Shown here one piece after another: positions 2,905 through 25,209 of a DNA stretch of 64,000 nt. The notes under the pieces are model-generated. The model did not search any database. It worked only from the letters and a program-made list of their open reading frames with translations, and was not told where the DNA came from. The position numbers and the translations under genes were made by a program. Every line of letters begins with the position of its first letter. The first letter of the stretch is position 1. The stretch lies in the sequence record OP172789, one strand, 5' to 3'. Origin of the DNA: Escherichia phage ECO71P1.

Positions 2905-3183
2905 TCACTTATAGTATTTAAACATAGCCGCGCAAAAGTCTTGCATGGCATTCTTAATCTGCTTCTTGAACAACGGGTCATGCATCGTTTCAACATTCGT
3001 CTTAATCCGAACGTGACCGATAACATCAAACGCAGTCGCTGGCATCGGCTCATAGATTTCATGATCGTTCAAGATTATATCTAGTTTTGACTCAGAAATC
3101 ACGGGATAATTCTTTCCAGCAGTAAACTGGTCATCAATCGATGACGTGCACTTGACAAAGAACACTTTGTATGTAGTAATCAT
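2905..3183 (-). CDS. hypothetical protein
   Basis: 92 aa ORF. Confidence 0.4.
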   Translation of the reverse strand: MITTYKVFFVKCTSSIDDQFTAGKNYPVISESKLDIILNDHEIYEPMPATAFDVIGHVRIKTNVETMHDPLFKKQIKNAMQDFCAAMFKYYK

Positions 3184-3389
3184 AGTGAGTCCTTCGGGCC
3201 GCAGTAGCGCCCGTCCAGGTAGCGGTCATATTGGATTAAGGCGAACGTTTTCAACGAAAGGTTACGGCGCTTAAACAGGTGACCCGTTGATGGATTCTGC
3301 TCGTGCGCCGTTGGATAAAGGCGTGACAGGTAGTGGATGAGGACTTGTAAAGCTCTACGTTGCTTTGTTATTCTCCCTTGTGTATTCAT
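3180..3389 (-). CDS. hypothetical protein
   Basis: 69 aa ORF, ATGA overlap with downstream gene. Confidence 0.3.
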   Translation of the reverse strand: MNTQGRITKQRRALQVLIHYLSRLYPTAHEQNPSTGHLFKRRNLSLKTFALIQYDRYLDGRYCGPKDSL

Positions 3390-3618: not shown

Positions 3619-4266
3619 TTATCCTGTGGCCTGCATATTGCGTACATACTTCTGCTCTAATGAATAGATGAAGTCGGCGACCGTCAATCCTTTGGTGTGC
3701 CACTCATACATTGTGTAGCCTGTATTCAGGAAATAGCCGCGCACCTTGTCCATTGCTTCAGATTCCTCCATGGAAGCCATCAGCGCGGCGACGTTATCAT
3801 AAGAAGGCACAAATCCCTTCTTGCGTAGCGCATTGCGCAAATCTTTAGTTCTGAATCCAATCTTGCACAGGTCATCACGGCCCGTTGAAGATGCAACCTT
3901 CGGCAGCGCAAGGAACTCTTTGAGGAACATTGAGATGTTCAAGTCGCCTGCGTCATCAAGCTTCTGGAGTCGGTTGCGACCGCGACCCTTGAATTCACTC
4001 GCACGAGGGTGAGCACCAAAGCAGTGCGCCCCTTCCAGTTTTGGGTCGATGATCATCAAATCTTTGCCTACGCGCAATTCAACATAGTAAAGGTATGTCT
4101 CATCGATAAGCTTCGTGCGCTTACAGTTGATGGAGTCCTTATCGTAACCAAAACCACGCAACACGGTTGAAATCATCCGGTTCATTTCTTCTCCGTGAAC
4201 GTCACTCTCTTTGTTCAGTTCACCAAGATGTTGAAAGAATTTAGCGATGTTGATTGCTTTATTCAT
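3619..4266 (-). CDS. hypothetical protein
   Basis: 215 aa ORF immediately upstream of the helicase gene, stop/start adjacent. Confidence 0.5.
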   Translation of the reverse strand: MNKAINIAKFFQHLGELNKESDVHGEEMNRMISTVLRGFGYDKDSINCKRTKLIDETYLYYVELRVGKDLMIIDPKLEGAHCFGAHPRASEFKGRGRNRLQKLDDAGDLNISMFLKEFLALPKVASSTGRDDLCKIGFRTKDLRNALRKKGFVPSYDNVAALMASMEESEAMDKVRGYFLNTGYTMYEWHTKGLTVADFIYSLEQKYVRNMQATG

Positions 4267-5936
4267 CAGAATTCATCCTTATCTCTTCCTAAAGAACGTT
4301 TGCGTTCAATAACCTTCTTCAAGAATTCAATATCTTCAGGGTCAGATTCATCGCGGATAAGATACGCCAAAATAGTCATCAGGTCAGAAATGTATTCCCC
4401 TGCTTCATTCTTAATCAGCGGCGTAAAGTAACCACGCTGGTTGCGATAGGTTGCAGGCTCAAATCCAAGCTTCGACATGTGCGGCGCAAGGGTACGTGAG
4501 AAAGGCGACTTGCCGCACTTAGCTCTGAAGCCCATAGCGATTGCACCACTAGTGATGTGCCAGCGTCCGCTGTGATGTCGGTCATAAGGCGCGGTGATGA
4601 CGACTTCAACAAGGTCGTTGTCGACCATCTCGTCACGGATAACGCCGCGAGCACGTTCCATTTCGTTCTTGCTGAACTCAGTAAGCATGCGAGACGTTTC
4701 ACCAACAAAAGCGTTGTAACCTGCTTCGCCGTGCTTCTCCATCCACGCAGCACACTCAGCCATCAACTGCCAAACATCTTCTTTCAAAGTGGAAAGGTCA
4801 GCTTGGAAGTCTTTCGACCAGTTCGGTTGCCCGTCCTTGTCTGCGAGTTGGCCAACAAAGATAGGATACACACGACGGTTGCCCGTATCGTCACGCTGCA
4901 TGCCTGCGTATTCGTTGCCGTCCATGATAGCAATCCACTGGCGCGGTTTAACCTGCGTATCTTCAAATTTGAAGTCCAGGTCATCTTCCGTCTTAGTCAG
5001 GAATGCTTTCATGTTTTCGATGTCGGCCTTTTTAAAGCCTGTCATCTCGCCAACGTTCGCGATAATTGAGCGACCCGTAATAGCTCGCAAGAACGGGTTG
5101 AAGTTCTGCGCGGCCAAGTTCAACGGAATCGGTGTTGCGTGGCGGTCGTTCATAATAGCTTCGCAAAGCAGCTTACTGAAATAACTCTTCCCTGCGTTCT
5201 GGCCGCCGATGAGCGCAATGGAGATTGGCGCTTGACAGCCAGGGTTGGTCAGGCGGTTATAGAGCGATAGCCAAAAATACACACCGATTTGTCGGTTTAA
5301 CTCTGTATCGAACGGTCGGAATAGCTCGATAAGGTATTTCTCAATGCGCGCAGTACCGTCCCATTCAGGCAGCTTCTTGTAGAAGAAGTCCATCAGGTCG
5401 TCGCGCTGATAACGCATGGCCCATTCCTTATAGGATTGAGCGACCTGACGTGAGTTTGGGTTGGACAGGCCTGCTGCGTCGACAGCGGCAACTATCTCTG
5501 TGACTTCCAACGTCCGGTCGGTGAATGTTTCTCCGCGATGGTCGACTAAGCGTCCACGAAAAGTATCTTTGTGAGGGAATGGGACAATGCCGCTTCCCTT
5601 ATCAAACAACGCGTCGAAAACCGCATAACGGTTCATGTCACTCGTCCGGTCCGCCTGAAGAACAAAATCATCTTTCGTCGGTTTGTAGTGAGGGAACTTG
5701 ATTACCTGAAGTGAGGCGAGCAAACGTGCTCTTTCAACCAAGTCTTCTTCACCGTAGCACTCCATGCGCTCTGCATCTTTCTCAACAGCCTTATGCTGGA
5801 GGCTGATTTTAGCTCTGGTGCCTTGCTGCTCTGCCGCTTGCATCTCTTCTGAAACACCAGCGTCTTGAATTTCGTCAAAGGTTGCACCAAATTCATCACC
5901 TGTATCCTCTGGAAGATTGTCATGTTCAATTGACAT
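4266..5936 (-). CDS. P-loop NTPase, putative replicative helicase (D5 / primase-C-terminal-like)
   Basis: Walker A-like IALIGGQNAGKSYFSKLL in 556 aa protein; strong AGGAGG RBS before ATG at 5936. Confidence 0.55.
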   Translation of the reverse strand: MSIEHDNLPEDTGDEFGATFDEIQDAGVSEEMQAAEQQGTRAKISLQHKAVEKDAERMECYGEEDLVERARLLASLQVIKFPHYKPTKDDFVLQADRTSDMNRYAVFDALFDKGSGIVPFPHKDTFRGRLVDHRGETFTDRTLEVTEIVAAVDAAGLSNPNSRQVAQSYKEWAMRYQRDDLMDFFYKKLPEWDGTARIEKYLIELFRPFDTELNRQIGVYFWLSLYNRLTNPGCQAPISIALIGGQNAGKSYFSKLLCEAIMNDRHATPIPLNLAAQNFNPFLRAITGRSIIANVGEMTGFKKADIENMKAFLTKTEDDLDFKFEDTQVKPRQWIAIMDGNEYAGMQRDDTGNRRVYPIFVGQLADKDGQPNWSKDFQADLSTLKEDVWQLMAECAAWMEKHGEAGYNAFVGETSRMLTEFSKNEMERARGVIRDEMVDNDLVEVVITAPYDRHHSGRWHITSGAIAMGFRAKCGKSPFSRTLAPHMSKLGFEPATYRNQRGYFTPLIKNEAGEYISDLMTILAYLIRDESDPEDIEFLKKVIERKRSLGRDKDEF

Positions 5937-7245: not shown

Positions 7246-8328
7246 CTATTTTATGCCACCTGCGCGACGATTTATCATATCAAGTTGATTCTCAATATAA
7301 GGCATTACTACTGCTTCGACAAAAGCGGTCCATCCTTTCTTGCCTTCCCCTTTCCGGTGACAGTCGTGAGCGCAACCGAAAACGAATTCATGTTCAGCGC
7401 CAGGGATTGGGCCGCGAAAATAAGCGCCGTATGGGTCGCCGTTGGTGTGCTCTTCACCCCAAGGACAGATGATGCGGCATTTACCTGACATGTTTTCAAC
7501 CACATCGCCATCGGACCCTTCGCCCATCTTATTGCGCGCAAGGATTTGCTGGGCTATCTTATACCAAACAGCGTCATATTTGTATTCGTCAACGTCGATT
7601 TGAATTTCACGCTTTTGCGGCATAACGACGTGGAAACCGAAGGCTTGGCAAATCTCTTCGATTGTGTAGCGCAAAGAATAGTCTGCATGAACAAGTCGGC
7701 AGCGGAACGGGTCGCCGTTCTCATCGACATATTTATAGGGGCCGTCGTGAGTCACACGCTTATTGTTGATGCACCCAGGAACACGACCCACGCGTGTCAC
7801 ATCTTTAATCGTATTGTCGCCGCCCTTCTTGAGTACCATGTTTACGAAAGACCCAAGGAATGCTTTGAACTGAATAAGATGGTCAATCGGTTCTTTAAAG
7901 AAGTACCACAGCTGATGGTTGTTCGGTGAAGTCTCAACAATGACGGTGGGCTTCAGGCGCTCGAAAAAGAATTCCAAATCTAAATCGCCCTTTGACCCTT
8001 TACCGTGTCCGATGTCGTCGACCATCATCGCCATGCCATGACCGAAAGCCGATTCCGTGCGCCAGTATCGCATCTCGCCTGTCTTTGGGTTGGGAGACTT
8101 ACGCATTGAACTTATGCAGGCGTAACCGTTCTGATGTTGCATCAGCGGCTTGCCAAGCTTCCAAGGCTTAGGCCAGAAGCTGCTGTTAATCTTTTTGCCG
8201 CGCTCGTCGGTCTGCACCGTTGCTTCAGGCGCAAACACTGTCATGACGCGTTCATCTTCTGGAATGCCTCTTTGGAGTTCCGTCAAAAACTCTTCGATTA
8301 TTTTTGCTTCTTCTCTTAAACTAGCCAT
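7246..8328 (-). CDS. putative primase-like replication protein (AEP/prim-pol-like DxD motif plus C-terminal Cys/His cluster)
   Basis: MMVDDIGHG acidic motif, C-terminal CPWGEEH...GCAHDCH; GAAGGAAAG RBS; sits beside helicase gene. Confidence 0.4.
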   Translation of the reverse strand: MASLREEAKIIEEFLTELQRGIPEDERVMTVFAPEATVQTDERGKKINSSFWPKPWKLGKPLMQHQNGYACISSMRKSPNPKTGEMRYWRTESAFGHGMAMMVDDIGHGKGSKGDLDLEFFFERLKPTVIVETSPNNHQLWYFFKEPIDHLIQFKAFLGSFVNMVLKKGGDNTIKDVTRVGRVPGCINNKRVTHDGPYKYVDENGDPFRCRLVHADYSLRYTIEEICQAFGFHVVMPQKREIQIDVDEYKYDAVWYKIAQQILARNKMGEGSDGDVVENMSGKCRIICPWGEEHTNGDPYGAYFRGPIPGAEHEFVFGCAHDCHRKGEGKKGWTAFVEAVVMPYIENQLDMINRRAGGIK

Positions 8329-8488: not shown

Positions 8489-8815
8489 ATGAACGAAAAA
8501 GATACGAAGCAACGAGAACGTGCAACACACGTCGGCATCGTTGAGTCCTTCCTTAATACAAGACTGAATTCAAGTCTTACAATTATGCGATTCCTGGGTC
8601 AACCAGACAGAATCAAATTCATCTTTGCCGCAAATCCGGTATCGCTTTACATCCCTGTTGAATCCATGGCGTACCTGGTGCGCGACGAGCAAGGGTGGAA
8701 GATACCAAACACGACTGTTTTCTTCAGTCACGTTGACGGTGAGATGTTTGAACGAAAAGAAGATTGCCATTTTATTCCAGTATATCTGGACCTTGAAAGC
8801 GTAGTGGAGTTATAA
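8489..8815 (+). CDS. hypothetical protein
   Basis: 108 aa ORF, first gene of plus-strand block. Confidence 0.45.
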   Translation: MNEKDTKQRERATHVGIVESFLNTRLNSSLTIMRFLGQPDRIKFIFAANPVSLYIPVESMAYLVRDEQGWKIPNTTVFFSHVDGEMFERKEDCHFIPVYLDLESVVEL

Positions 8816-9999
8816 TGAACATTCCAGAATTTAATAATGAGCCAGTGATTCAGTTCAACGCGCAACAGATTGATGCCATCGAAAAGGCCGTTGCATGGTA
8901 CAAGCGATTGCAGGACGGTAAAACGACGAAGCGCGTGTTTTTCATCGCTGGCTATGCAGGAACAGGTAAAACCTCTATTGCGCGTGAGATTGTGCGCCGT
9001 TGTGTCGGTGAGTACGGTGCCATTTATATTGCGCCGACCGGAAAGGCAGCCAGCCGATTGAAGCAGAAAGGGTGTCGTGGCGCGAAGACACTTCACCAGT
9101 TCATCTATAACGTGCGCGGCGTAAATGACGACAATGAGCCAATATTTTCGAGAAAGTCAAAGCTGGACGAAAAGCCGCATCTTGTAGTCCTTGATGAAGC
9201 TTCAATGGTTGGCGAGTGGGATACAGAGCGCCTTCTTGATCACCGCATCCCTGTGCTGGCATTAGGCGACATTGGACAAGTCCCTCCGGTAAAAGCCGCC
9301 GCCTACTTTACTGAAGATGCCGTTGACGTACTGTTAACCGAAATCATGCGGCAAGGGAAAGAGTCCAACATAATCCGCGCTTCCTTCTTCGTGCGACAGG
9401 GCAACCGACTTCCTCCGCGTGAATACGATGACGTCAAGGTGTTGGCTGAATCGCCGCGCGTTACCGCACTGAAGAAATTCATGGGCGAAGATGATCAGAT
9501 TATTTGTTCATATAACAGCACCAAAGATAAATGGAATTCATTATTGCGGCAAGTGAGCGGACGTATAACGCCAATGCCAGGAATCGGTGAGAAAGTTATT
9601 TGCACATTCAACCAACACGGTCCAGGATTCTGTAATGGCGAGCAAGGGATTGTTATTAGTTATGAGCCAGTACCGGACTTTGAAAGGGATGAAGATGAGT
9701 CCAATGAAATAATGTATGTAAATTTGCGCTCGCTTACCGATGGCAAAGATATAAAGGTCAAGATAAATCCTCTTTCCTTCTCTACTGATCAGGAAGTGCG
9801 CAAAGAGGCTCAACGCGCTGTTGGAGGAATGGACTATGGCTATGTCATAACGGTGCACAAATCGCAAGGCAGCGAGTGGGATAATGTGTGCGTTCTGGAA
9901 GAAATCTTGCGCGGCGTTCCGTATGCCAAGATGATGTACACAGCCATCACCCGTGCTAAGAAGAATCTGACTGTGTACCGTGATTTGAAAGCGCGTTAA
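8815..9999 (+). CDS. Dda/RecD-like superfamily 1 DNA helicase
   Basis: Walker A GYAGTGKTS, Walker B VLDEASMV, C-terminal YVITVHKSQGSEWD motif. Confidence 0.75.
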   Translation: MNIPEFNNEPVIQFNAQQIDAIEKAVAWYKRLQDGKTTKRVFFIAGYAGTGKTSIAREIVRRCVGEYGAIYIAPTGKAASRLKQKGCRGAKTLHQFIYNVRGVNDDNEPIFSRKSKLDEKPHLVVLDEASMVGEWDTERLLDHRIPVLALGDIGQVPPVKAAAYFTEDAVDVLLTEIMRQGKESNIIRASFFVRQGNRLPPREYDDVKVLAESPRVTALKKFMGEDDQIICSYNSTKDKWNSLLRQVSGRITPMPGIGEKVICTFNQHGPGFCNGEQGIVISYEPVPDFERDEDESNEIMYVNLRSLTDGKDIKVKINPLSFSTDQEVRKEAQRAVGGMDYGYVITVHKSQGSEWDNVCVLEEILRGVPYAKMMYTAITRAKKNLTVYRDLKAR

Positions 10000-11130: not shown

Positions 11131-12126
11131 ATGAACATGAAACAACCTGTAATGATTATCGGCGGCGGACTGGCAGGACTTATCACCGCTTGTCACTTCC
11201 CGAACTCTGTTGTGTACGAAGCAGGGGAACGAGCGCAACAGCACAAGGCGCTGCTACGCTTTCGCAGCGAAGAAGTAAGCCGTATTACCGGAATCCCTTT
11301 TAAGGCTGTGACAGTTGACAAGGCTGTGTATTTTCGCGGCCACTACTACCACGACCATTGCCCAATCAACCTTGCCAATATGTATTCCATGAAGGTCACC
11401 AATCAATTTGGCAGCCGTTCAATCATGAAGCTTAAGACTGCAACGCGTTATATTGCGCCTGATGACTTTTATGATCAGCTTGTCGACAAACTGGGTGACC
11501 GAATATTCTTTAATACTCCGGTTGATACTCTTTGCGGCTATAGCGAGACGCCAATCATCAACACGTCGCCGCTGCCAGTCATGATGAAGCTGGCTGGGAT
11601 TGATCAAAAGCTTGATTTCTCATTTGATAAAGCAAACATTCGTGTTTACCGCTTTAAGATTAAACGTAAGTGTGATTTGTATCAGACAATTTACTTCCCT
11701 GACTACTCCGTCAGAACTTACCGCGCATCAATTACTGGTGACACGCTTATCATTGAAACAATTCCTTTGGTCAGCGTGAGTGAAGCTGCAGTTGAAGCCG
11801 CTGGCGGCATCACTCGTTACCGTGACATGAAGCTGCGCGCAGAAGTCGACGAAGTGTTGACAGCCTTTGGCCTCTCATGGAGCGACATCGCTCTTGAAGA
11901 AGTTGAAAAGGTCGACCAGAAATATGGCAAGATTGTCGACATTCCGAAAGACTTGCGACACGCCCTACTCCTGCAGCTGACTATGGATTTGAACGTGTTC
12001 AGTGTCGGTCGATTTGCTACCTGGCGCAACATTTTGCTTGATGACGTTGCCCATGACCTTGTTGAAGTTGAAAAACTCATCAAAGCAAATAACTATCAAA
12101 AATTTGCTTATATTGCTAATAAATAA
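11131..12126 (+). CDS. FAD/NAD(P)-binding Rossmann-fold protein, function unknown
   Basis: N-terminal VMIIGGGLAGL dinucleotide-binding motif. Confidence 0.5.
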   Translation: MNMKQPVMIIGGGLAGLITACHFPNSVVYEAGERAQQHKALLRFRSEEVSRITGIPFKAVTVDKAVYFRGHYYHDHCPINLANMYSMKVTNQFGSRSIMKLKTATRYIAPDDFYDQLVDKLGDRIFFNTPVDTLCGYSETPIINTSPLPVMMKLAGIDQKLDFSFDKANIRVYRFKIKRKCDLYQTIYFPDYSVRTYRASITGDTLIIETIPLVSVSEAAVEAAGGITRYRDMKLRAEVDEVLTAFGLSWSDIALEEVEKVDQKYGKIVDIPKDLRHALLLQLTMDLNVFSVGRFATWRNILLDDVAHDLVEVEKLIKANNYQKFAYIANK

Positions 12127-14359: not shown

Positions 14360-15043
14360 ATGAAAAAAGTAATTGTTGTAACTGGCTGCAATTCCGGTCT
14401 TGGTAAATCCATTTTTGACACCCTTGGCGCTTACGGTCACGAAGTTGTCGGTATTGATTTGGACAACGGTTATGACATCCGTAACGCGAAACAGATGAAA
14501 GAGCTTCTCTCTCAATACGACGTAGAGGGCTTGATCAACTGCGCTGGCGTCAACTCCAACAACTGGTTTGAAGACGTTAACTACGAAGAGTTTAATCGCG
14601 TTATGCACACCAACGCCTTCTCTTTCGTTAACACGACTCAGGCCGCGCTGAAAAGTCTTATTGACAACAAAGGTTTTGTGATCAACATCGTTTCCAACGC
14701 TGCGCATATTCCTATGACGTCCAGCTTGTGTTATAATGCTTCCAAGGCCGCTGCGCTTATGATTAGCAAGCAGATGGCTCACGAGCTTACGCCTAAATAC
14801 GGGATCACGGTCTTCTCTATTAGTCCTAACAAGTTGCGTGGCACTGGTATGTCTAAACAGATTGAAGATGCTGTTTGCGCGACTCGCGGCTGGACTCCTG
14901 AGTATGCTGCTGAATACCAGAAAAAGGCGTTGATGAATGGATTGGAGACTGAGCCGCAAGTAATTGCTGACTTCATTCGCCATATCTTAATTACGGGCGC
15001 ATGGCGCTTTATGTCTGGTACTGATATTCCATTTGGGAAATAA
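14360..15043 (+). CDS. short-chain dehydrogenase/reductase (SDR) family oxidoreductase
   Basis: VTGCNSGLGKS cofactor motif and YNASKAA catalytic YxxxK. Confidence 0.65.
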   Translation: MKKVIVVTGCNSGLGKSIFDTLGAYGHEVVGIDLDNGYDIRNAKQMKELLSQYDVEGLINCAGVNSNNWFEDVNYEEFNRVMHTNAFSFVNTTQAALKSLIDNKGFVINIVSNAAHIPMTSSLCYNASKAAALMISKQMAHELTPKYGITVFSISPNKLRGTGMSKQIEDAVCATRGWTPEYAAEYQKKALMNGLETEPQVIADFIRHILITGAWRFMSGTDIPFGK

Positions 15044-15282: not shown

Positions 15283-15834
15283 ATGCCACACTTTAAAATT
15301 GAACAAATCGCCCTGTCAATTCCAGATGCTCAGCGTGCACAGGATTTTCTGGCTAAAATCGGCCTGACAGAATGGTTCCATGATCATGTTGTTGCTACTG
15401 GTCGCGTATTTGAAAATGACGAGTTTAAAGGTCGTCGCGACGATTGCACCAACGAAGCTGACTTGCGATTCAACTATCAGGCTGGCAACGGCACCGATGG
15501 CGGCGCTGGTAAGCCTCTTGAGCTTGAAATCCTTGACTACACAATGGGTTGCAACTGGATCAACGAAAACATCGACATGCTTGATGCGCACGATAATCAG
15601 GTCAGCCATCTTGGCATGCATGTGACTGCCGCTGAACTTGCTGAATGGCGTAAGTTCTTTAAAGAAGAAGGCATTCAGGTTGCGCAGGAAGTCGTAACTG
15701 ACTCTCACACCAACCCAAATATTGCTGGTCAGCGTCGTTACAACTATGTGATCTTTGATACGCGTGAAATCATCGGTGTCGACCTTAAGTTCATTGTGCG
15801 GTTGAATCAAGACGGTACTCCGTACACTGCATAA
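15283..15834 (+). CDS. hypothetical protein, possibly glyoxalase/VOC-like fold
   Basis: 183 aa; weak resemblance only; AAGGAAA RBS. Confidence 0.35.
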   Translation: MPHFKIEQIALSIPDAQRAQDFLAKIGLTEWFHDHVVATGRVFENDEFKGRRDDCTNEADLRFNYQAGNGTDGGAGKPLELEILDYTMGCNWINENIDMLDAHDNQVSHLGMHVTAAELAEWRKFFKEEGIQVAQEVVTDSHTNPNIAGQRRYNYVIFDTREIIGVDLKFIVRLNQDGTPYTA

Positions 15835-15849
15835 CGAATCGTGAATCTG

Positions 15850-15875
15850 TGGCCGTCCTAATGGGCGGCCTTTTT
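15850..15875 (+). terminator. rho-independent terminator
   Basis: GGCCGTCCTAATGGGCGGCC hairpin followed by TTTTT. Confidence 0.65.
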
Positions 15876-15888
15876 GTAGGAGGCCAAT

Positions 15889-16431
15889 GTGTTATTTCTT
15901 CCTTATGACTTCGAAACAACCGGATTAACCGTGCACCCGAAAGCGCCGCTTGGGATGCAGCCGCGCCCTATTGAATTTGCAGGCCTGTTGACGGACGGCA
16001 AAGAGATTCTTGAAACGTTCGAGTTCATAATCAACCCTGAAATCGTGATTGAAGAAATCATCACAAAGATTACCGGATTAACAAATGAAGACCTTGAGTG
16101 CAATCCGCCATTCATCAATTTTGTTCCGCAGCTAAAAGAAATCTTCAAGAAGACTGATGCCACTATCGCGCACAACCATGCGTTCGATAAGAACATTCTT
16201 GATTATGCACTACAGCGCGAAGGACTTACACTTGATGATGTTAATTTCCCAGAAATAAACATCTGTACAGTTGAGCAAACCTTGCCTATTTTTGGCCGAA
16301 GAGTTAAGCTTCAAGAGCTGTATGAATTATATTTCGGAAAATATGAACAGAAGCACCGTGCATTAGACGACGTAATATTACTGCACAAAGTCTGCCAACA
16401 AATTGGCGTATATGACATCTGGAGTAAATAA
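15889..16431 (+). CDS. DnaQ-like 3'-5' proofreading exonuclease
   Basis: Exo motifs DFETTG, HNHAFD, HRALDD; GTG start after AGGAGG. Confidence 0.8.
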   Translation: MLFLPYDFETTGLTVHPKAPLGMQPRPIEFAGLLTDGKEILETFEFIINPEIVIEEIITKITGLTNEDLECNPPFINFVPQLKEIFKKTDATIAHNHAFDKNILDYALQREGLTLDDVNFPEINICTVEQTLPIFGRRVKLQELYELYFGKYEQKHRALDDVILLHKVCQQIGVYDIWSK

Positions 16432-19328
16432 TGTTTCCACAATTGAGAGTTCGCAGCGGTTACACGTTCAAAGAAGTATATGGACGGCATCCTGAAATTA
16501 TAGCACGGCTCAAAGAGTTGGGCTGCGAAGTCGCGGCATTAGTTGATAACAATACATGGGGTCACGTTCGCTGGGAAAAGGAATGTCAGAAGAATGATAT
16601 CAAGCCTATGTTCGGCATGGAAATTCCAATCATCGACCCTGATGCGGACCCGAAAAAGGGATTCAAACCGAAGGCTTGGATATTGGCGCTTGACCTGAAA
16701 TCTTTTTACAACGCTACGACACTTGCAACACAGCGCGGCGGACTGACCCGTGCAGAGTTCGGGGCGCTGGATGGCGTCGTTAAATTCTGTGGCGGGGCTG
16801 TGGAGTTGCTGCGACCAGAGGACTACGATTATATAGACGTCAACCCATCATCGTTCCTTTTGGCCAAGCGCCAGGTATTGGCTCACCGCAACAACGGAAG
16901 GCCGCTGGTTTTAACCGGATACAACCACATGCCTTCACCTGAGCACGTTGACTTTGCTTATGCTTGGGAAGTGCGCGACACGGTCAAGCCGCACTGCATC
17001 GTTGACGCGGAAGACTTGTGCAAACAGCTTAAAGGAATCCTGACCGAAGATGAGTTGAATCAAGCAACGGCCAATGCGGTTGATATTGCAAACGGAATCG
17101 TTGGGCTTGGCCTGAAGCTGCGCAAGGCACCGATTATCCACCTTGCTGGTGACATGGTAAAGCTTGCTCGTGAGGGTATGGAGTACCGCCTTAAGGCAGG
17201 TCACATCAAAGAATGGACTCAGGAATACGAGGACCGATTCAACGAAGAGATTCACCAGATTCAGCTGAAAGACTTTGACTCATACTTTCTGGTGGTAGCG
17301 GACCTTGTACGATTCGCAAAAACAAAAATGCTTGTCGGACCCGCTCGCGGCTCATCGGCTGGTTCACTGGTTTGTTATTGCCTCGGCATCACGGAAGTTG
17401 ACCCAATCCCGTATAAGCTGCTGTTCGCCCGATTCATCGACGTAAGCCGCGCCGACCTTCCTGATATTGATATTGACTTTGAGGATACCAAACGCTATAT
17501 GGTGTTTGATTACCTTAAAGAAAAATACGGCGAAATGAACGTTGCAAAGCTTGGCAACATCAACACTCTTAAGGCCAACTCAGTAATGGCTCAGGTTGGT
17601 AAGAAATTCAACATTGGATATCACGAAACGGCCAACATTAAAAACGCATTGCTTGAATACTCATCTGGTGACGCCCGTTATGGTCACGGCCTGGAGGATA
17701 CCTTTGCAACAACTACCACGGGTCAAGAGTTTGTGGCGAAATATCCTGACGCCGCGCGTTGCATGGGTGACCTTGAGATTCACCCGTCCCACACAGGTGT
17801 TCACGCAGCGGGAATCATCGTGTGTAATGATCCAATCTCTGATTACTGTACTGTAACGGCGGAAGGGATTGCGCAAATTGATAAGCCTGACAGCGAATAC
17901 CTTAACCTTTTGAAGCTTGATGCATTGGGTCTTCGCACCCTCGGAATCATTTCTGATACTGGCGTGATAGACGCTGAAACGCTGTACGGAATCAAGCTTG
18001 ATGATCAAAGCGTCCTTGACATCCTTAACGAAAACAAGATGTCAGGAATATTCCAGTTTGAAGGCGACGCTGTACGCTCAGTAACCAACTTTGTGCACGT
18101 TGATAACTTTAACAAAATCGATAACCTGACAGCACTTGGCAGACCTGGCCCGTTGTCATCCGGTATGGCCCAGAAATACATCGAACGCGCGGCAGGACGT
18201 GCGCCGATTGAGTACGACGTGCCGCAGCTTGAGCCGTACTTAAAAGAGACTTACGGCGTGTTTCTTTACCAAGAGCAAATCATGGCCGTGGTTAAAGAGA
18301 TTGGTTCATTCGACTGGGCGAAAACATCAGCTGTACGTAAGGCAATGTCAGGTCGTAAGGGTGAAGAATACTTTAACAAGCTTGGCGAAGACTTCGTTGC
18401 AGGCGCAATAAATAACGGCGTACCGGAAGCGGATGCAAGAAAGCTTTGGCAGGCGATGGCGACGTTCGGGTCATGGGGCTTTAACAAGTCACACTCCGTG
18501 TCATACGCGGTCGTGACTTACTGGACCTTGTGGCTTAAACGACACTACCCGCTGGAATTTGCCGCTGCTTGCTTACGCGCTGCTAAGGACGAAGACCAGA
18601 CGATTGCGATATTACGTGAACTTGCAAAGGAAGGCGTGGATTATGTGCCAATCGACCCTGATCACTCTTCAATGAACTGGACCATCGCTAACGGAAAGCT
18701 AATCGGCGGCATCATGAACGCTAAAGGGTACGGAATGGTAAAAGCGATGAAGTACATCGAAGCACGTGAAGCCGGAACCTTAACGCAAAAACAAAAGGAC
18801 GCATTGGCCAATGCTGAAGTCAAATACGGCGACCTTACAGAGATGCACACCAAGTTCGGTTGGGCGTATAATGACCCCTATCTGATTGGCGTTACTTCCG
18901 GTGCTTCAATACGCCAGATGAAGGAAGTCGGTGATGACGAGCGTGCAATAGTGATCGGCAAGCTGACCAAGAAAGTGCTGGCTGACGAGAACGAAGCAAC
19001 ACGCATCCGTAAACGTCTTGAGCGCGGCATTTATACAAAGCACGGCAAACTTAAAAAGGGTCTTCAAGCTGATGGTCGCTACGCAGAGTTTGACCAGTAT
19101 GGAAACAAGCTTGAGACTCAGTTCATTGACCTTATGTGCAAGGACGATTCGACCGACTCGCCAATGCGCTTCAGGATTCGCCCAGAGAAGTTCCAGAAAT
19201 ACGGTAAATACATTGCAGAGAACGTCGGGAACGGCGCATTCTTCCTGATGAAAGGCCGCAAGCTTGAAGGTATTGACATGTTTATCGTCGACGTGATCAA
19301 ACAGGTGTATCCAGATGGCAACAAATAA
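16431..19328 (+). CDS. DnaE-type (Pol III alpha / family C) DNA polymerase catalytic subunit
   Basis: PARGSSAGSLVCYCLGITEVDP...PDIDIDF and GFNKSHSVSYAVVTYWTLWLK match hallmark DnaE segments. Confidence 0.85.
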   Translation: MFPQLRVRSGYTFKEVYGRHPEIIARLKELGCEVAALVDNNTWGHVRWEKECQKNDIKPMFGMEIPIIDPDADPKKGFKPKAWILALDLKSFYNATTLATQRGGLTRAEFGALDGVVKFCGGAVELLRPEDYDYIDVNPSSFLLAKRQVLAHRNNGRPLVLTGYNHMPSPEHVDFAYAWEVRDTVKPHCIVDAEDLCKQLKGILTEDELNQATANAVDIANGIVGLGLKLRKAPIIHLAGDMVKLAREGMEYRLKAGHIKEWTQEYEDRFNEEIHQIQLKDFDSYFLVVADLVRFAKTKMLVGPARGSSAGSLVCYCLGITEVDPIPYKLLFARFIDVSRADLPDIDIDFEDTKRYMVFDYLKEKYGEMNVAKLGNINTLKANSVMAQVGKKFNIGYHETANIKNALLEYSSGDARYGHGLEDTFATTTTGQEFVAKYPDAARCMGDLEIHPSHTGVHAAGIIVCNDPISDYCTVTAEGIAQIDKPDSEYLNLLKLDALGLRTLGIISDTGVIDAETLYGIKLDDQSVLDILNENKMSGIFQFEGDAVRSVTNFVHVDNFNKIDNLTALGRPGPLSSGMAQKYIERAAGRAPIEYDVPQLEPYLKETYGVFLYQEQIMAVVKEIGSFDWAKTSAVRKAMSGRKGEEYFNKLGEDFVAGAINNGVPEADARKLWQAMATFGSWGFNKSHSVSYAVVTYWTLWLKRHYPLEFAAACLRAAKDEDQTIAILRELAKEGVDYVPIDPDHSSMNWTIANGKLIGGIMNAKGYGMVKAMKYIEAREAGTLTQKQKDALANAEVKYGDLTEMHTKFGWAYNDPYLIGVTSGASIRQMKEVGDDERAIVIGKLTKKVLADENEATRIRKRLERGIYTKHGKLKKGLQADGRYAEFDQYGNKLETQFIDLMCKDDSTDSPMRFRIRPEKFQKYGKYIAENVGNGAFFLMKGRKLEGIDMFIVDVIKQVYPDGNK

Positions 19329-19737
19329 CCGTGAACAGAAATACATATTCGTGCCTTTGAAGAAGCATTCAGAATCAATATTGAAGCTTCAACGAATCGA
19401 ATCGATGACTGGTGATGGCGTGCCGGACGTAATCGGCACCAACCGGAAAGGTCGCGGCTTTTGGCTTGAAATGAAGTTCTTTGAATCGTGGCCTGCAAGG
19501 GCCAACACTGCACCTTTCAGAAATGCATTTGAGAAAGGTCAGTGCAGCTTTCTTTCTTCGTGGAATGATTGGAAATACCCATCATTTGTTTTGCTTAAAG
19601 TCGATTCTGAGAAGATGTTTTATTTAGTCCACCCTTCGATTGAATTAAAGCGTTATAATATTGCAGACGTTCAACGTGAGATAATCGTGAAGGGAACTAT
19701 TCATCACATCATCAAGTATTTAGAGGAATTGTCATGA
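19315..19737 (+). CDS. VRR-NUC family (PD-(D/E)xK) nuclease
   Basis: GVPDV...EMK motif; directly upstream of SNF2 ATPase. Confidence 0.5.
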   Translation: MATNNREQKYIFVPLKKHSESILKLQRIESMTGDGVPDVIGTNRKGRGFWLEMKFFESWPARANTAPFRNAFEKGQCSFLSSWNDWKYPSFVLLKVDSEKMFYLVHPSIELKRYNIADVQREIIVKGTIHHIIKYLEELS

Positions 19738-21257
19738 AAACACAAGGGATGCGCCACCAGCTTCTGGCGCTTGATAAAGCAGGCCGCAGAAAATACTTTG
19801 CCTATTTCATGGAACAGGGTCTTGGTAAAACTTGGACCGCTTTGGCAGAGTTTGAAAAGCACTTCGCCGCTGGCGCGTTCGATGCCATGGTCGTCATCGC
19901 TCCAAACGGTGTCCACTCAAACTGGATTCGTCGTGAAGCACCAGAACACCTTTCCATCAAGTGGATTGGGCACTACTGGCGCGGCAATGACAAGATGAAG
20001 ACTAAAAAGGGCAAGGCGCTTTGGGAGAAGATGTTTGCTGATCACTACCCTGAAGGCGAAGTGCCTGCGCGCATCTTCTCATTCAACATTGATACCGTCA
20101 ACACACCAGTCGGTTATCAACACATAGAGTCGGTCTTGAAGAAATACCGCTGCCTGATGATCATCGACGAATCAACGCGCATCAAGAATAACACAGCCAA
20201 ACGCTCCATCAAGGTTGTGGAATTGGGACGGCTGGCAAAGGCCCGTCGAATCCTTTCCGGTACGCCGTTGCCGCGCTCGCCTGCGGATATTTACATGCAA
20301 TACCACTTCCTTGAAGCAGGATTGCTCGGCACCAAATCATTCCGTGCCTTTAACTCTGAATTCACGGTGCTACTTGAAGCGCACGACCCAGAGATGCAAG
20401 CCATCCTCAAGAAAATCGGCGGCAATGGCTATGGGATTCCGCAAGTGCCGCGCAAAGACCAGTTTGGCCGACCGATGTACAAGAACCTTGACAAGCTTAT
20501 CCGGCTGATGGAACCGCACTATTTTCGTGCAACAAAAGCAGAATACTTGCCTGACCTTCCAGAGAAGGTGTATAAGTTTATCGACTTCGAGTTGTCGCCT
20601 AAACAACGCGATGTTTACGATGAACTCAAGAATGAGTACAACTATTTGATGGAATACAAGGGCGAAGAAGAAAACGTCAAGTTTGAGATGATCGCATCGC
20701 GCACCAAGATGAAGCAGGTTACATCCGGCTTTGTCAAGGTGTATGATGAGATGGTCTACATGGAAGACAACCCACGCTTCACGGCCTTTAAGGATTATGT
20801 GGAAGGGGTGTTGGAAGACGACCCAGAGCGCAAATTCATCGTTTGGGCCATCTTTAAGGAAGAGATGAACCAGATTAAGGAATGGCTTGAGTCTGAAGGC
20901 GTGGTCACTGGTGTATACAACGGTGAAACATCAAAAGAGCAGCGCGAGTTCTTGATTGATGACTTCCAGAAAAACACAGTCGCGAATGGTGGAACACAGG
21001 TATTGGTTTGCCACGCTGCAGCGGCAGGCATCGGCATCACACTTACCGCCGCTGACTTGGCAATCTATTATTCTTGCAACTATGACAATGAGTTGCGCAA
21101 GCAATCCGAAGACCGAAATCACCGCATCGGCACCAAATCAAGCGTGTTGTATGTTGATTTTATTGGTGTTGATACCATCGACGAAGAAATTCAGCGTTCA
21201 CTCAGTATGAAGTCAATGCTTGCTGATCACATCCTCGACGGCAAAAAGATGAATTAA
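19734..21257 (+). CDS. SNF2-family helicase-like ATPase
   Basis: GLGKT Walker A, IIDEST DExx box, C-terminal helicase-like region. Confidence 0.8.
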   Translation: MKTQGMRHQLLALDKAGRRKYFAYFMEQGLGKTWTALAEFEKHFAAGAFDAMVVIAPNGVHSNWIRREAPEHLSIKWIGHYWRGNDKMKTKKGKALWEKMFADHYPEGEVPARIFSFNIDTVNTPVGYQHIESVLKKYRCLMIIDESTRIKNNTAKRSIKVVELGRLAKARRILSGTPLPRSPADIYMQYHFLEAGLLGTKSFRAFNSEFTVLLEAHDPEMQAILKKIGGNGYGIPQVPRKDQFGRPMYKNLDKLIRLMEPHYFRATKAEYLPDLPEKVYKFIDFELSPKQRDVYDELKNEYNYLMEYKGEEENVKFEMIASRTKMKQVTSGFVKVYDEMVYMEDNPRFTAFKDYVEGVLEDDPERKFIVWAIFKEEMNQIKEWLESEGVVTGVYNGETSKEQREFLIDDFQKNTVANGGTQVLVCHAAAAGIGITLTAADLAIYYSCNYDNELRKQSEDRNHRIGTKSSVLYVDFIGVDTIDEEIQRSLSMKSMLADHILDGKKMN

Positions 21258-22208: not shown

Positions 22209-23069
22209 ATGTCTAAGAAAGAAACTACCGAAGTTGCAGTGAAAAACACCCAGATGTCCGCTATGGCTGATTTTGTCGATATGACCGATTTTGGCGCTGG
22301 TTTTGAAGGTGCCGATGCCGACGCTTATGCCATTCCTTTTATCGTCGTACTGCAAAAGATGTCTCCGATGGTCGACGAAGATGATCCAAAACACGTTCCT
22401 GGCGCAAAAGCTGGCATGTTGTACAACACCGTTACTGGTGAGTTGTATGACGGCAAGAAAGGCGTGCAGATCATCCCTTGCGCATTCAAACGCACCTTCA
22501 TCCTTTGGGGCGGTCGCGAGTCCGACGATAAAGGCTTTAAAGGTGAATTCACCAAAGAGCACGTTGATGCAGAAGTCGCGGCAGGCCGCGCTGTTGAAAT
22601 CAACGGTAAGGTATTCGTGCCAGACGAAAACGGCAAAGTGCACGAGAAGAAATCACCTTACTACGCAGATACACGTAACCACTTTGTGATCCTGTTAAAC
22701 GAAGAGACTGGTGAATTTGGTAGCGCAATGCTGTCTCTGACTTCTTCCATGATCAAGCCGTCTCGCATGCTGATGACCGCTCTGCAGCAGAAGAAAGTTC
22801 AGACTCCGCAGGGCCTGAAAACTCCGCCGACCTTCATGAACATCGTTCGCATGGGTACTGCGTCTCAGTCCAAAGATGGCAACACCTGGTCAGTTCTGAA
22901 GTTTGAGCTGGAAGGTCTGGTGCAGGATAAAGGTCTGTATGAAGTCGCCAAAGCATTCCACAACGACGTAGTTGGCGGCAACGTTAACATCGACCGCAGC
23001 AAGCAGGAAGAAGCAAGCGGTGCCGCTGGTCCTGTCAATGAAACTCCGACCGACGCAGAAGAGTTTTAA
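22209..23069 (+). CDS. putative single-stranded DNA-binding protein (acidic C-terminal tail ending in Phe)
   Basis: C-terminus ...TDAEEF resembles the acidic tails of T7 gp2.5 and bacterial SSB; inference only. Confidence 0.3.
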   Translation: MSKKETTEVAVKNTQMSAMADFVDMTDFGAGFEGADADAYAIPFIVVLQKMSPMVDEDDPKHVPGAKAGMLYNTVTGELYDGKKGVQIIPCAFKRTFILWGGRESDDKGFKGEFTKEHVDAEVAAGRAVEINGKVFVPDENGKVHEKKSPYYADTRNHFVILLNEETGEFGSAMLSLTSSMIKPSRMLMTALQQKKVQTPQGLKTPPTFMNIVRMGTASQSKDGNTWSVLKFELEGLVQDKGLYEVAKAFHNDVVGGNVNIDRSKQEEASGAAGPVNETPTDAEEF

Positions 23070-23645: not shown

Positions 23646-24235
23646 ACCAGATTTATGCAAACATTCGCCAGTGGGCTTCTGACCGTAACATCATCAAAGG
23701 TTGCGACCTTAAGGACCAATACCCGAAGCTTATTAGCGAGTTTGGGGAGTTGACCGACCACGTGGATCAACTCCATGACCTTGTGTTCTTTGACCCTGAA
23801 ATCGGATATACAGAGCAGGCCATCTGTGATTTACAAGCCGCAATCAAGGACGACATCGGCGATTGCCTTGTTGTGTTAACTATCCTTGCCGCGCAAAATG
23901 GTGCAAAAATCGAAGACATCAACGGCGGCGGTTGCGCCGACAAAGGTGCCCACCCTCACTCGTTTATCCTTCGCTTGGCAAAGACTCTCGGACGGCTTGG
24001 TGATGCCATTGCTAAAAATCAGAGTATGGATATTGATGTCACCATCATGGCCGCAGTCGATTACCTTTCCGGCGTAGCACATGATTATGGACTTCGACTG
24101 TCTGATTGCGCTCAGGCCGCCTATGAAGACATCAAGGACCGTAAAGGCGTGATGTACAACGGAACGTTCATCAAATCGACTGATCAGGCTTACGCCTATG
24201 CGCTGGAACAAGTGATGAATAAGGAGTTTGAGTGA
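23642..24235 (+). CDS. MazG-like nucleoside triphosphate pyrophosphohydrolase (all-alpha NTP-PPase)
   Basis: ISEFGELTDHV and DDIGDCLVVLTILA resemble MazG EExGEL / DxL motifs. Confidence 0.45.
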   Translation: MNQIYANIRQWASDRNIIKGCDLKDQYPKLISEFGELTDHVDQLHDLVFFDPEIGYTEQAICDLQAAIKDDIGDCLVVLTILAAQNGAKIEDINGGGCADKGAHPHSFILRLAKTLGRLGDAIAKNQSMDIDVTIMAAVDYLSGVAHDYGLRLSDCAQAAYEDIKDRKGVMYNGTFIKSTDQAYAYALEQVMNKEFE

Positions 24236-25209
24236 TGGCAGGAGAAATCAAAGCACTAAAACCGATGAAAGGTTGCCAGCGTAAACAAATCATTGAGCGC
24301 GGCGAAGACGTGCCGCTGCCTTGCGGGTTGTCATTCAAGGTCGATGGCATACGCGCGATGGCGTATGACAACTTGCCAATGGGTACGTCCGGCATGGCGT
24401 TGCGAAACGTTCAGATTAAAAAAGAGTTCCTCTTTTTGGGTGAATTGATTCACGGCCTTGATGGAGAGCTTATTGACGGCAATCCGAATGATAAGAACGT
24501 CATGCAGCAAGCCTATACCGCATGCATGAATACCGATGCTATAACAAACTTCACATGGTGGGTGTTTGATGACTTTAGCGACCCTGATTTGCCTTTCTCG
24601 GCACGTTATGAGCAATACAATCGACGCGTTGCTGAGGTCAATCAATACCTCATTGACCATGGCCGACGTCCATTCCTTCGCGCTCTCGAATATCGCAACA
24701 TCGAAAATATGGAACAGTACGCGGCAATGCAAATCGAAGCAGACCAGCTTGGCTATGAAGGCTTGTATGGCAAGTCTTGGACGGGCAAATACAAGCATGG
24801 CCGCGCGACGCCAAAGTCACGTGATGTGTGGAAGGACAAGCCGTGGACCGATGAAGAAGGACTGATCATAGACTTCGTTGAGATGATGGAGAACAACAAC
24901 GAAGCGTTCATTGATGAGTTGGGTCGCACTAAGCGTTCAAAAGAGGCTGAAGGCTTAGTCGCAAAAGGATACCTTGGCTCATTCGTAGTTGTCAATCCAA
25001 AGTATGTGGATGAGAAAGGTGAAATGATTCCTTTCCGCGTCTCCGCTGGTTCAATGCCTATGGCAGAGAGAAAAATGCTTTGGGAGAATCGCGAGAATTA
25101 TCGCAACAAATATCTGACATATAAATTCTTTAACTTTGGCATCGTTGACGTGCCGCGCTCTGCCTTGTATAAGTGCTTCCGTGATATTACCGATATGGAG
25201 TATTTTTAA
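24235..25209 (+). CDS. ATP-dependent DNA ligase
   Basis: Adenylation motif I FKVDGIRA (KxDGxR); size similar to small phage ligases. Confidence 0.6.
   Translation: MAGEIKALKPMKGCQRKQIIERGEDVPLPCGLSFKVDGIRAMAYDNLPMGTSGMALRNVQIKKEFLFLGELIHGLDGELIDGNPNDKNVMQQAYTACMNTDAITNFTWWVFDDFSDPDLPFSARYEQYNRRVAEVNQYLIDHGRRPFLRALEYRNIENMEQYAAMQIEADQLGYEGLYGKSWTGKYKHGRATPKSRDVWKDKPWTDEEGLIIDFVEMMENNNEAFIDELGRTKRSKEAEGLVAKGYLGSFVVVNPKYVDEKGEMIPFRVSAGSMPMAERKMLWENRENYRNKYLTYKFFNFGIVDVPRSALYKCFRDITDMEYF

Follow-up and report, generated by a model that had tools for sequence, protein, structure and literature searches.

A DnaE-type polymerase and a separate DEDDh exonuclease encoded by adjacent genes in Escherichia phage ECO71P1

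Escherichia phage ECO71P1 (sequence record OP172789; the 64,000 nucleotides analysed are referred to here as the window) encodes a DnaE-type DNA polymerase next to a separate exonuclease. The phage is a Wifcevirus: across the region it is 94-97% identical to members of that genus infecting E. coli and Shigella, among them vB_EcoM_WFH (~97%), ECML-117, FEC19 and Mansfield. Wifcevirus is a distant relative of Pbunavirus (bioRxiv 10.1101/2024.09.12.612763). In phage Banzai of this sister genus, a polymerase and a 3'-5' proofreading exonuclease homologous to DNA polymerase III (Pol III) alpha and epsilon were described in 2025 as having the central role in Pbunavirus replication (PMC12390725). The Mansfield record names the pair 'DNA polymerase III epsilon' and 'DNA polymerase III alpha', and that of the BASEL phage Bas99 names them 'DNA polymerase exonuclease subunit' and 'DNA polymerase'. 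The interpretation as polymerase and exonuclease is therefore already present in databases and the literature, and the feature itself is already known. The present analysis adds a residue-level domain map, an assignment for the C-terminal OB fold, the clade-wide loss of PHP metal ligands and a linkage statistic of 75/75 loci.

A preliminary description of the window had proposed a DnaQ-like exonuclease and a DnaE-type polymerase as separate, adjacent genes, and both open reading frames (ORFs) are found at the positions it gave:

15889..16431, + strand: exonuclease ORF, 180 amino acids, GTG start
16431..19328, + strand: DnaE-type polymerase ORF, 965 amino acids, ATG start

The two gene products very probably form the catalytic core of a two-subunit Pol III-like replicase belonging to the phage itself. 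In such an enzyme, the 965-residue polymerase would synthesise DNA through the Asp triad of its palm (D345, D347, D497), while the 180-residue DEDDh exonuclease from the adjoining upstream gene would supply proofreading in trans. The core would work with a phage-encoded RepB-type primase, a VapE-like helicase, Dda-like and SNF2 helicases, and an ATP-dependent ligase. The sequences directly establish what the two proteins are, their catalytic residues, the domain map and a near-universal linkage of the genes. We infer that the two proteins form a complex in which the exonuclease proofreads for the polymerase, and that this enzyme replicates the phage genome.

Such polymerases are uncommon among phages, in line with the earlier remark that most contractile-tailed phages carry family A or B enzymes. 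Of 415 polymerase-bearing double-stranded DNA (dsDNA) viruses surveyed, 255 had a family B, 132 a family A and 28 a family C polymerase (PMC3201878). The same 2011 survey found family C in 28/808 dsDNA virus genomes (PMC3201878), and it was detected here in 1374 of 50,697 phage records (2.7%). The pair characterises Wifcevirus, Pbunavirus and a set of related ~60-74 kb myophages, whose hosts include Serratia, Pantoea, Xanthomonas and Burkholderia. It marks a lineage, as had been suggested, and sets the replisome type of this phage group, which repeats existing annotation and literature.

Domains and active site of the polymerase

Both the exonuclease and the polymerase match their families far beyond chance. 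For the polymerase, the matches are to Pfam DNA_pol3_alpha (PF07733, 3.1e-63, residues 243-500), Pfam DNA_pol3_finger (PF17657, 1e-37, residues 519-663) and phrog_405 (2.4e-270). Comparison with bacterial DnaE recovered all of the expected parts (PHP-like, palm, fingers and OB), which are arranged as follows:

16431..17105, + strand: degenerate PHP-like domain (~residues 1-225; boundary taken from the E. coli alignment offsets)
17157..17930, + strand: palm/thumb (the Pfam 'NTPase' domain, PF07733, residues 243-500), with catalytic D345, D347 and D497
17985..18830, + strand: fingers (PF17657, residues 519-663) into the helix-hairpin-helix (HhH) region, with the BLASTP alignment continuing through 798/872
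18933..19310, + strand: C-terminal OB fold (~residues 835-960), directly after which the protein ends

The preliminary description had left room for a different PHP-domain enzyme lacking the palm. The palm is present, and its Asp triad aligns with D401/D403/D555 of E. coli and is invariant in 71/71 close and 70/70 broader relatives. Further along, the HhH motif GGIMNAKGYG (residues 759-768) aligns with GIGAIKGVG in E. coli alpha (834-843), and G759, G760, I761, N763, A764, G766 and G768 are invariant in the clade.

Searches with phmmer matched solved DnaE structures from Taq (2.8e-85) and E. coli (6.4e-85) over residues 210-798. By BLASTP, residues 194-798 are 33% identical to residues 244-872 of the host E. 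coli DnaE. Because the core is only 33% identical to the host enzyme, the polymerase gene is of long standing in phages and was not captured recently from the host. A confident AlphaFold2 model, for which 71 homologs were used (predicted local distance difference test score, pLDDT, 87.9; predicted template modelling score, pTM, 0.81), superposes on DnaE1 of M. tuberculosis (Foldseek E 6.4e-51, template modelling score 0.74), and on the Taq and E. coli enzymes, whereas PolC is matched far more weakly over the full-length fold (1e-27). Since the protein passes the TIGR00594 cutoff for the family C superfamily (475.1 vs 434.35) yet fails every cellular DnaE equivalog cutoff, its profile scores identify it as a family member but not as an equivalog of cellular DnaE1.

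The N-terminal PHP-like domain is uninterrupted, with no exonuclease insertion, which is the topology of DnaE and not that of PolC. Its Pfam match is marginal (8.3e-6; 26.7 bits vs a cutoff of 26.4). Proof by sequence profile was attempted and set aside: a 21-sequence N-terminal profile reached only E 0.15-0.8 to the E. coli alpha PHP in the PDB, and gave equally weak spurious matches to RNA polymerase beta. As the sequence profile was not significant, the domain was established from its fold, for which Foldseek returned the E. coli alpha PHP chimera 4gx9 at E 1.4e-8.

Nine metal-ligand positions are defined for PHP domains, with the consensus H H D/H H E H C/H D/N H (Barros et al., PMC3666897). 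At these positions E. coli has R10 H12 D19 F44 D69 H83 G134 D201 R203 (PMC3666897), and the window has R6 R8 E15 N40 E64 K81 G122 H166 P168. Across 70 full-length relatives, only 0-3 of the nine canonical ligands are kept and the HxH motif is always R/K-x-R/K; arginine is the commonest ligand replacement in bacterial variant PHP domains (PMC3666897). Given this loss of ligands, and the criterion that any departure from the PHP motif means an inactive site (PMC12926913), the PHP nuclease is predicted to be dead throughout the clade, and the domain probably now serves only a structural or docking role. In bacteria, PHP ligand loss accompanies a separate epsilon-like proofreader (PMC3666897; PMC12926913).

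The 2011 survey of viral replicases described phage family C polymerases as conserved from PHP to fingers and left the region after the fingers unassigned (PMC3201878). That stretch folds as an OB domain like the one in cellular DnaE, an assignment that fills the gap. In E. coli alpha, the tau-binding domain spans approximately residues 1073-1160. Nothing matching it was found in the phage polymerase, which stops after the OB fold; relatives are 921-1035 residues long unless they bear an intein. The preliminary description had called the polymerase shorter than host DnaE, and at 965 residues vs 1160 in E. coli K-12 it is 195 residues shorter, because the tau-binding domain is absent and the PHP domain is shorter. 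Within the OB fold, a basic loop (residues ~855-896, window 18993-19118) is modelled with low confidence and reads RLERGIYTKHGKLKKGLQADGRYAEFDQYGNKLE vs RGGKxxKGQ in the clade. The Wifcevirus loop has ~30 more residues than that of the clade consensus.

No conserved canonical clamp motif was found in 70 phage polymerases, where a regular expression gave only scattered, non-homologous matches in 13/70; the expression covers canonical motifs only and recovers both of those in E. coli alpha (920 QADMF and 1154 QVELEF). The conserved polymerase segment AEVxFxDLxEAHTKWG was also considered as a clamp motif and rejected, as it has neither the Q nor a matching hydrophobic pattern. Pbunavirus-type polymerases (seen in an IMG/VR contig) carry a charged, predicted coiled-coil insertion of ~65 residues (…KELEKLLKADLKELKAELKELKAQYKEL…) at the junction between HhH and OB. 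It lies at window residues ~785-795, where E. coli alpha has its internal clamp motif.

Two kinds of irregular homolog were also encountered. In Ro157lw (MH051335.1, ~3085-3354; window 18672-18815), dnaE contains an exact tandem duplication of 127 bp at residues 748-795 and is annotated as two coding sequences. A natural split before the OB domain was rejected as an explanation, because the duplication, which probably arose either in assembly or very recently, shifts the frame. The long metagenomic homologs P0096 (1215 residues) and P0115 (1232 residues) were considered as fusions of exonuclease and polymerase, and this too was rejected. Their extra length comes from an intein of ~250 residues with an HNH-type endonuclease, which interrupts the FNK|SHS motif that is conserved in the fingers.

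The exonuclease and its linkage to the polymerase gene

The exonuclease matches Pfam RNase_T (PF00929, 9.6e-22, residues 6-165) and phrog_192, 'DNA polymerase exonuclease subunit' (2.3e-37). Its DEDDh site comprises D7 and E9 in Exo I, D100 in Exo II, and H156 with D161 in Exo III, and all five are invariant in 75/75 sequences. Alignment with E. coli DnaQ (24% identity, E 9e-6) pairs H156/D161 with H162/D167 and D100 with D103. A match is also obtained to the exonuclease domain of T. maritima PolC (2p1j, 4.2e-6), and the PolC-type model TIGR01405 scores 6e-18 vs 2.3e-11 for the proteobacterial DnaQ model TIGR01406. The top family scores are to a generic 'DEDD exonuclease domain' and to PolC/DinG-type exonuclease models. 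These scores place the protein closer to PolC-type exonuclease domains than to proteobacterial DnaQ. Judged by its sequence, it is a DEDDh 3'-5' exonuclease of the DnaQ/PolC-exonuclease kind, reduced to a bare catalytic domain, and it is the predicted proofreading subunit.

The earlier label 'epsilon-like' therefore holds for the catalytic domain, with its DEDDh residues, but not for the rest of epsilon: the alpha-binding tail is absent and the scores lie nearer to PolC-type exonucleases. The protein ends 19 residues past D161, at 180 residues vs 243 for E. coli epsilon. Its tail contains 'QIGVY' (residues 171-175), which resembles QL[SD]LF and is placed where epsilon has QTSMAF. This was considered and rejected as a canonical clamp motif, given that 74 relatives do not conserve the Q and that the near clade keeps only a G-[VIL]-[YF] core.

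Two features lie immediately upstream of the exonuclease gene:

15878..15883, + strand: Shine-Dalgarno sequence AGGAGG, 5 nt 5' of the GTG start, with a ribosome-binding site annotated at the same place in Mansfield
15851..15875, + strand: intrinsic-terminator-like hairpin GGCCGTCC-TAAT-GGGCGGCC followed by a T-run, 8 pairs of which 7 are G-C

The Mansfield record annotates the same GTG start. A later start, giving 158 residues, is annotated in Bas99 (PQ850618.1, 38291-38767) and in Ro157lw, and loses the Exo I D-x-E. The GTG start, which is preceded by AGGAGG and retains this motif, is the correct one. The hairpin sits between a glyoxalase-like gene and the exonuclease gene and is context, outside the enzyme itself. 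Terminator-like sites are no more numerous in the region than shuffling predicts, and the terminator call rests on position and on the terminator annotation carried by the homologous hairpin site in Mansfield (11963-11989).

The stop codon of the exonuclease gene and the start codon of dnaE have one base in common (TAATG). This one-base overlap suggests translational coupling, through which the two proteins would be made together. In phage AV128 (OR352958.1, 845-997), a 158-bp insertion lies exactly at the junction of the two genes (equivalent to window 16431). It holds an ORF of 50 codons with a hydrophobic N-terminus (MWILLILAIGGTT...), and the gene overlap is broken in this one phage.

Linkage was followed across 80 IMG/VR loci with polymerases 34-69% identical to that of the window, of which 75 had sufficient upstream sequence. 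An exonuclease homolog lies upstream of dnaE on the same strand in 75/75 testable loci, at polymerase identities down to 34%. The distance from the exonuclease stop to the dnaE start was distributed as follows:

10 nt or less (overlapping or abutting): 38 loci
11-60 nt: 7 loci
61-600 nt: 27 loci
more than 600 nt: 3 loci

The overlap measures 4 nt in Pbunavirus PSA25, where the surrounding gene order matches that of the window. Among the 50,697 phage records, a full-length exonuclease is found in 360 and a full-length polymerase in 375, in the same taxa. The linkage in 75/75 loci, combined with a PHP site that is predicted to be dead, supports a pairing of polymerase and proofreader.

Alternative interpretations and the replication module

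Several observations weigh against a two-subunit replicase. The exonuclease falls below every NCBIfam DnaQ cutoff (TIGR00573 37 vs 71.5; TIGR01406 43.8 vs 222.7). When aligned with E. coli epsilon, it lacks the C-terminal alpha-binding segment and the clamp motif that precedes it, so that a complex with the polymerase cannot be argued by analogy with E. coli. The two genes are at least 61 nt apart in 30/75 loci, and a small ORF stands between them in AV128, which means that tight coupling is not universal. The polymerase itself lies below all cellular DnaE equivalog cutoffs, the best score being 495 vs 1002 (DnaE1 model PRK05673). In addition, no biochemical characterisation of any phage DnaE-type polymerase was found in the literature searched.

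The first three of these points would also fit an exonuclease that is a free-standing nuclease, active in end-processing during recombination or repair, in host DNA breakdown or in counter-defence, with adjacency reflecting only co-expression in a DNA-metabolism module. Its best family scores, to generic DEDD and PolC/DinG-type models, are compatible with such a role. Stand-alone DnaQ homologs are numerous and are not to be called epsilon without validation (PMC12926913), a call that needs either a confident co-fold or close relationship to a DnaQ that has been validated (PMC12926913). However, the exonuclease gene keeps its place upstream of the polymerase gene on the same strand in every testable locus, even at 34% polymerase identity, and the two occur nearly one to one (360 vs 375 records). 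Moreover, with the PHP site apparently dead in every member, the replicase would have no proofreading unless the exonuclease supplied it. Overall, a free-standing nuclease appears improbable, and a proofreading subunit is preferred.

Further evidence on the role of the polymerase comes from its surroundings in the window:

4266-5936, - strand: VapE-like ATPase (D5/PICI-type; PF05272, 1.6e-28)
7246-8328, - strand: RepB-type primase (PF16793, 1.6e-36)
8815-9999: Dda/RecD-like helicase
19734-21257: SNF2 helicase
24232-25209: ATP-dependent ligase

The module also encodes ThyX and a PNK-type phosphatase. The Pbunavirus counterpart of the VapE-like ATPase has been described as a self-loading helicase of the type found in phage-inducible chromosomal islands (PICI; PMC12390725). 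No DnaB or DnaG homologs were seen, and the VapE-like ATPase and RepB-type primase are likely the helicase and primase of the replisome. The curated complete genome of Bas99 has one annotated DNA polymerase, and no second polymerase, clamp or clamp loader.

This setting bears on whether the DnaE homolog could instead be an accessory or repair polymerase, error-prone in the manner of DnaE2, with the host Pol III holoenzyme copying the phage genome. The absence of the tau-binding domain and canonical clamp motifs, which tie cellular DnaE1 into the holoenzyme, is consistent with this, as are the failed DnaE1 equivalog cutoffs. Yet the protein scores higher on DnaE1 (495 bits) than on the error-prone DnaE2 model PRK05672 (331 bits vs a cutoff of 939), and is structurally closest to DnaE1. 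The annotated genomes show no partners of the imuA/imuB type. The genome has no other DNA polymerase, and this one is grouped with primase, helicases and ligase in one module. Pairing with a proofreader is also the opposite of an error-prone design. An accessory polymerase is therefore highly improbable, and a phage replicase remains the favoured interpretation.

A more far-reaching proposal, offered tentatively and still doubtful, is that the clade runs a self-contained minimal family C replicase. Its two-subunit alpha-epsilon-like core would need neither tau nor a beta clamp, and the degenerate PHP domain would receive the bare exonuclease in a manner unlike that of the C-terminal peptide of E. 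coli epsilon. Processivity would be intrinsic or come from an unrecognised phage factor. If true, a minimal replicase could contribute to the very short infection cycle of Wifcevirus, given as 3-5 min (cited in bioRxiv 10.1101/2024.09.12.612763). Independently of this proposal, the phage enzymes are stripped-down forms of the bacterial replicase, with no contacts to tau, clamp or theta and a tail-less proofreader. Their compactness would make them suitable for finding out what fast and accurate synthesis requires of Pol III.

Metabolic-looking genes are also found within the replication module. A UDP-galactopyranose mutase (11131-12126, + strand; named from the annotation of its Mansfield homolog), an SDR/FabG-like reductase (14360-15043, + strand; Pfam adh_short, 1e-31) and a weakly glyoxalase-like protein (15283-15834, + strand) are all encoded inside it. 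Downstream, an ORF for 140 residues (19315-19737, + strand) shares 14 nt with the end of dnaE and 4 nt with the start of the SNF2 helicase gene. It matches phrog_2165 'DNA helicase' (3e-35) and has no Pfam match, and Mansfield annotates a shorter version. A PD-(D/E)xK / VRR-NUC-like motif (PDVIG...FWLEMKF) suggests that it may be a nuclease partner of the SNF2 helicase.

A 286-residue protein (22209-23069, + strand) matches Pfam Pam3_Gp34 (4e-86) and phrog_2402, which is of unknown function. It has an acidic tail with a terminal Phe (...NETPTDAEEF), resembling the C-termini of T7 gp2.5 and of the E. coli single-stranded DNA-binding protein (SSB), which dock onto replisome partners. The protein is a candidate phage SSB or annealing protein; a phmmer search against the PDB for an SSB relationship gave no match.

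Comparison with known systems

DnaE-like polymerases of actinobacteriophages and Bacillus phages have the palm and fingers in common with the enzyme of the window, at 30-38% identity over ~52-72% of the query. They belong to another sub-lineage, and their N- and C-terminal regions do not align. For the exonuclease, tblastn searches of phage records gave no actinophage match at E<=1e-5.

The PolC of Firmicutes is also a family C polymerase, and the phage exonuclease scores best against PolC-type exonuclease domains. The architecture differs, however. PolC carries its exonuclease inside the PHP domain and its OB fold at the N-terminus; in the phage, the exonuclease has an ORF of its own and the OB fold lies at the C-terminus. 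PolC models score 44.6 against a cutoff of 873.

The resemblance to the Pol III core of E. coli is closer, as both combine a DnaE1-like polymerase that has lost PHP metal ligands with a separate DEDDh proofreader. The order of domains is also that of E. coli alpha: PHP, palm/thumb, fingers with HhH, and OB. In contrast to E. coli Pol III, the phage enzyme lacks a tau-binding C-terminal domain, the QADMF/QVELEF clamp motifs and theta, and its exonuclease has neither the clamp motif nor the alpha-binding segment of ~55 residues found in epsilon. The PHP domain is also more degenerate, keeping at most three canonical ligands where that of E. coli keeps four.

The closest systems remain the pairs of Wifcevirus and Pbunavirus (Mansfield gp64/gp65, Banzai 058/059 and PSA25), which are orthologs of the window's pair and whose genes overlap likewise. 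The Pbunavirus proteins are ~56-58% identical to those of the window, and their polymerases are longer (~1035 residues) owing to the ~65-residue insertion before the OB fold; otherwise nothing material separates them. The two groups also have the same gene order, running from ThyX and the phosphatase through the exonuclease and DnaE to the small ORF and the SNF2 helicase.

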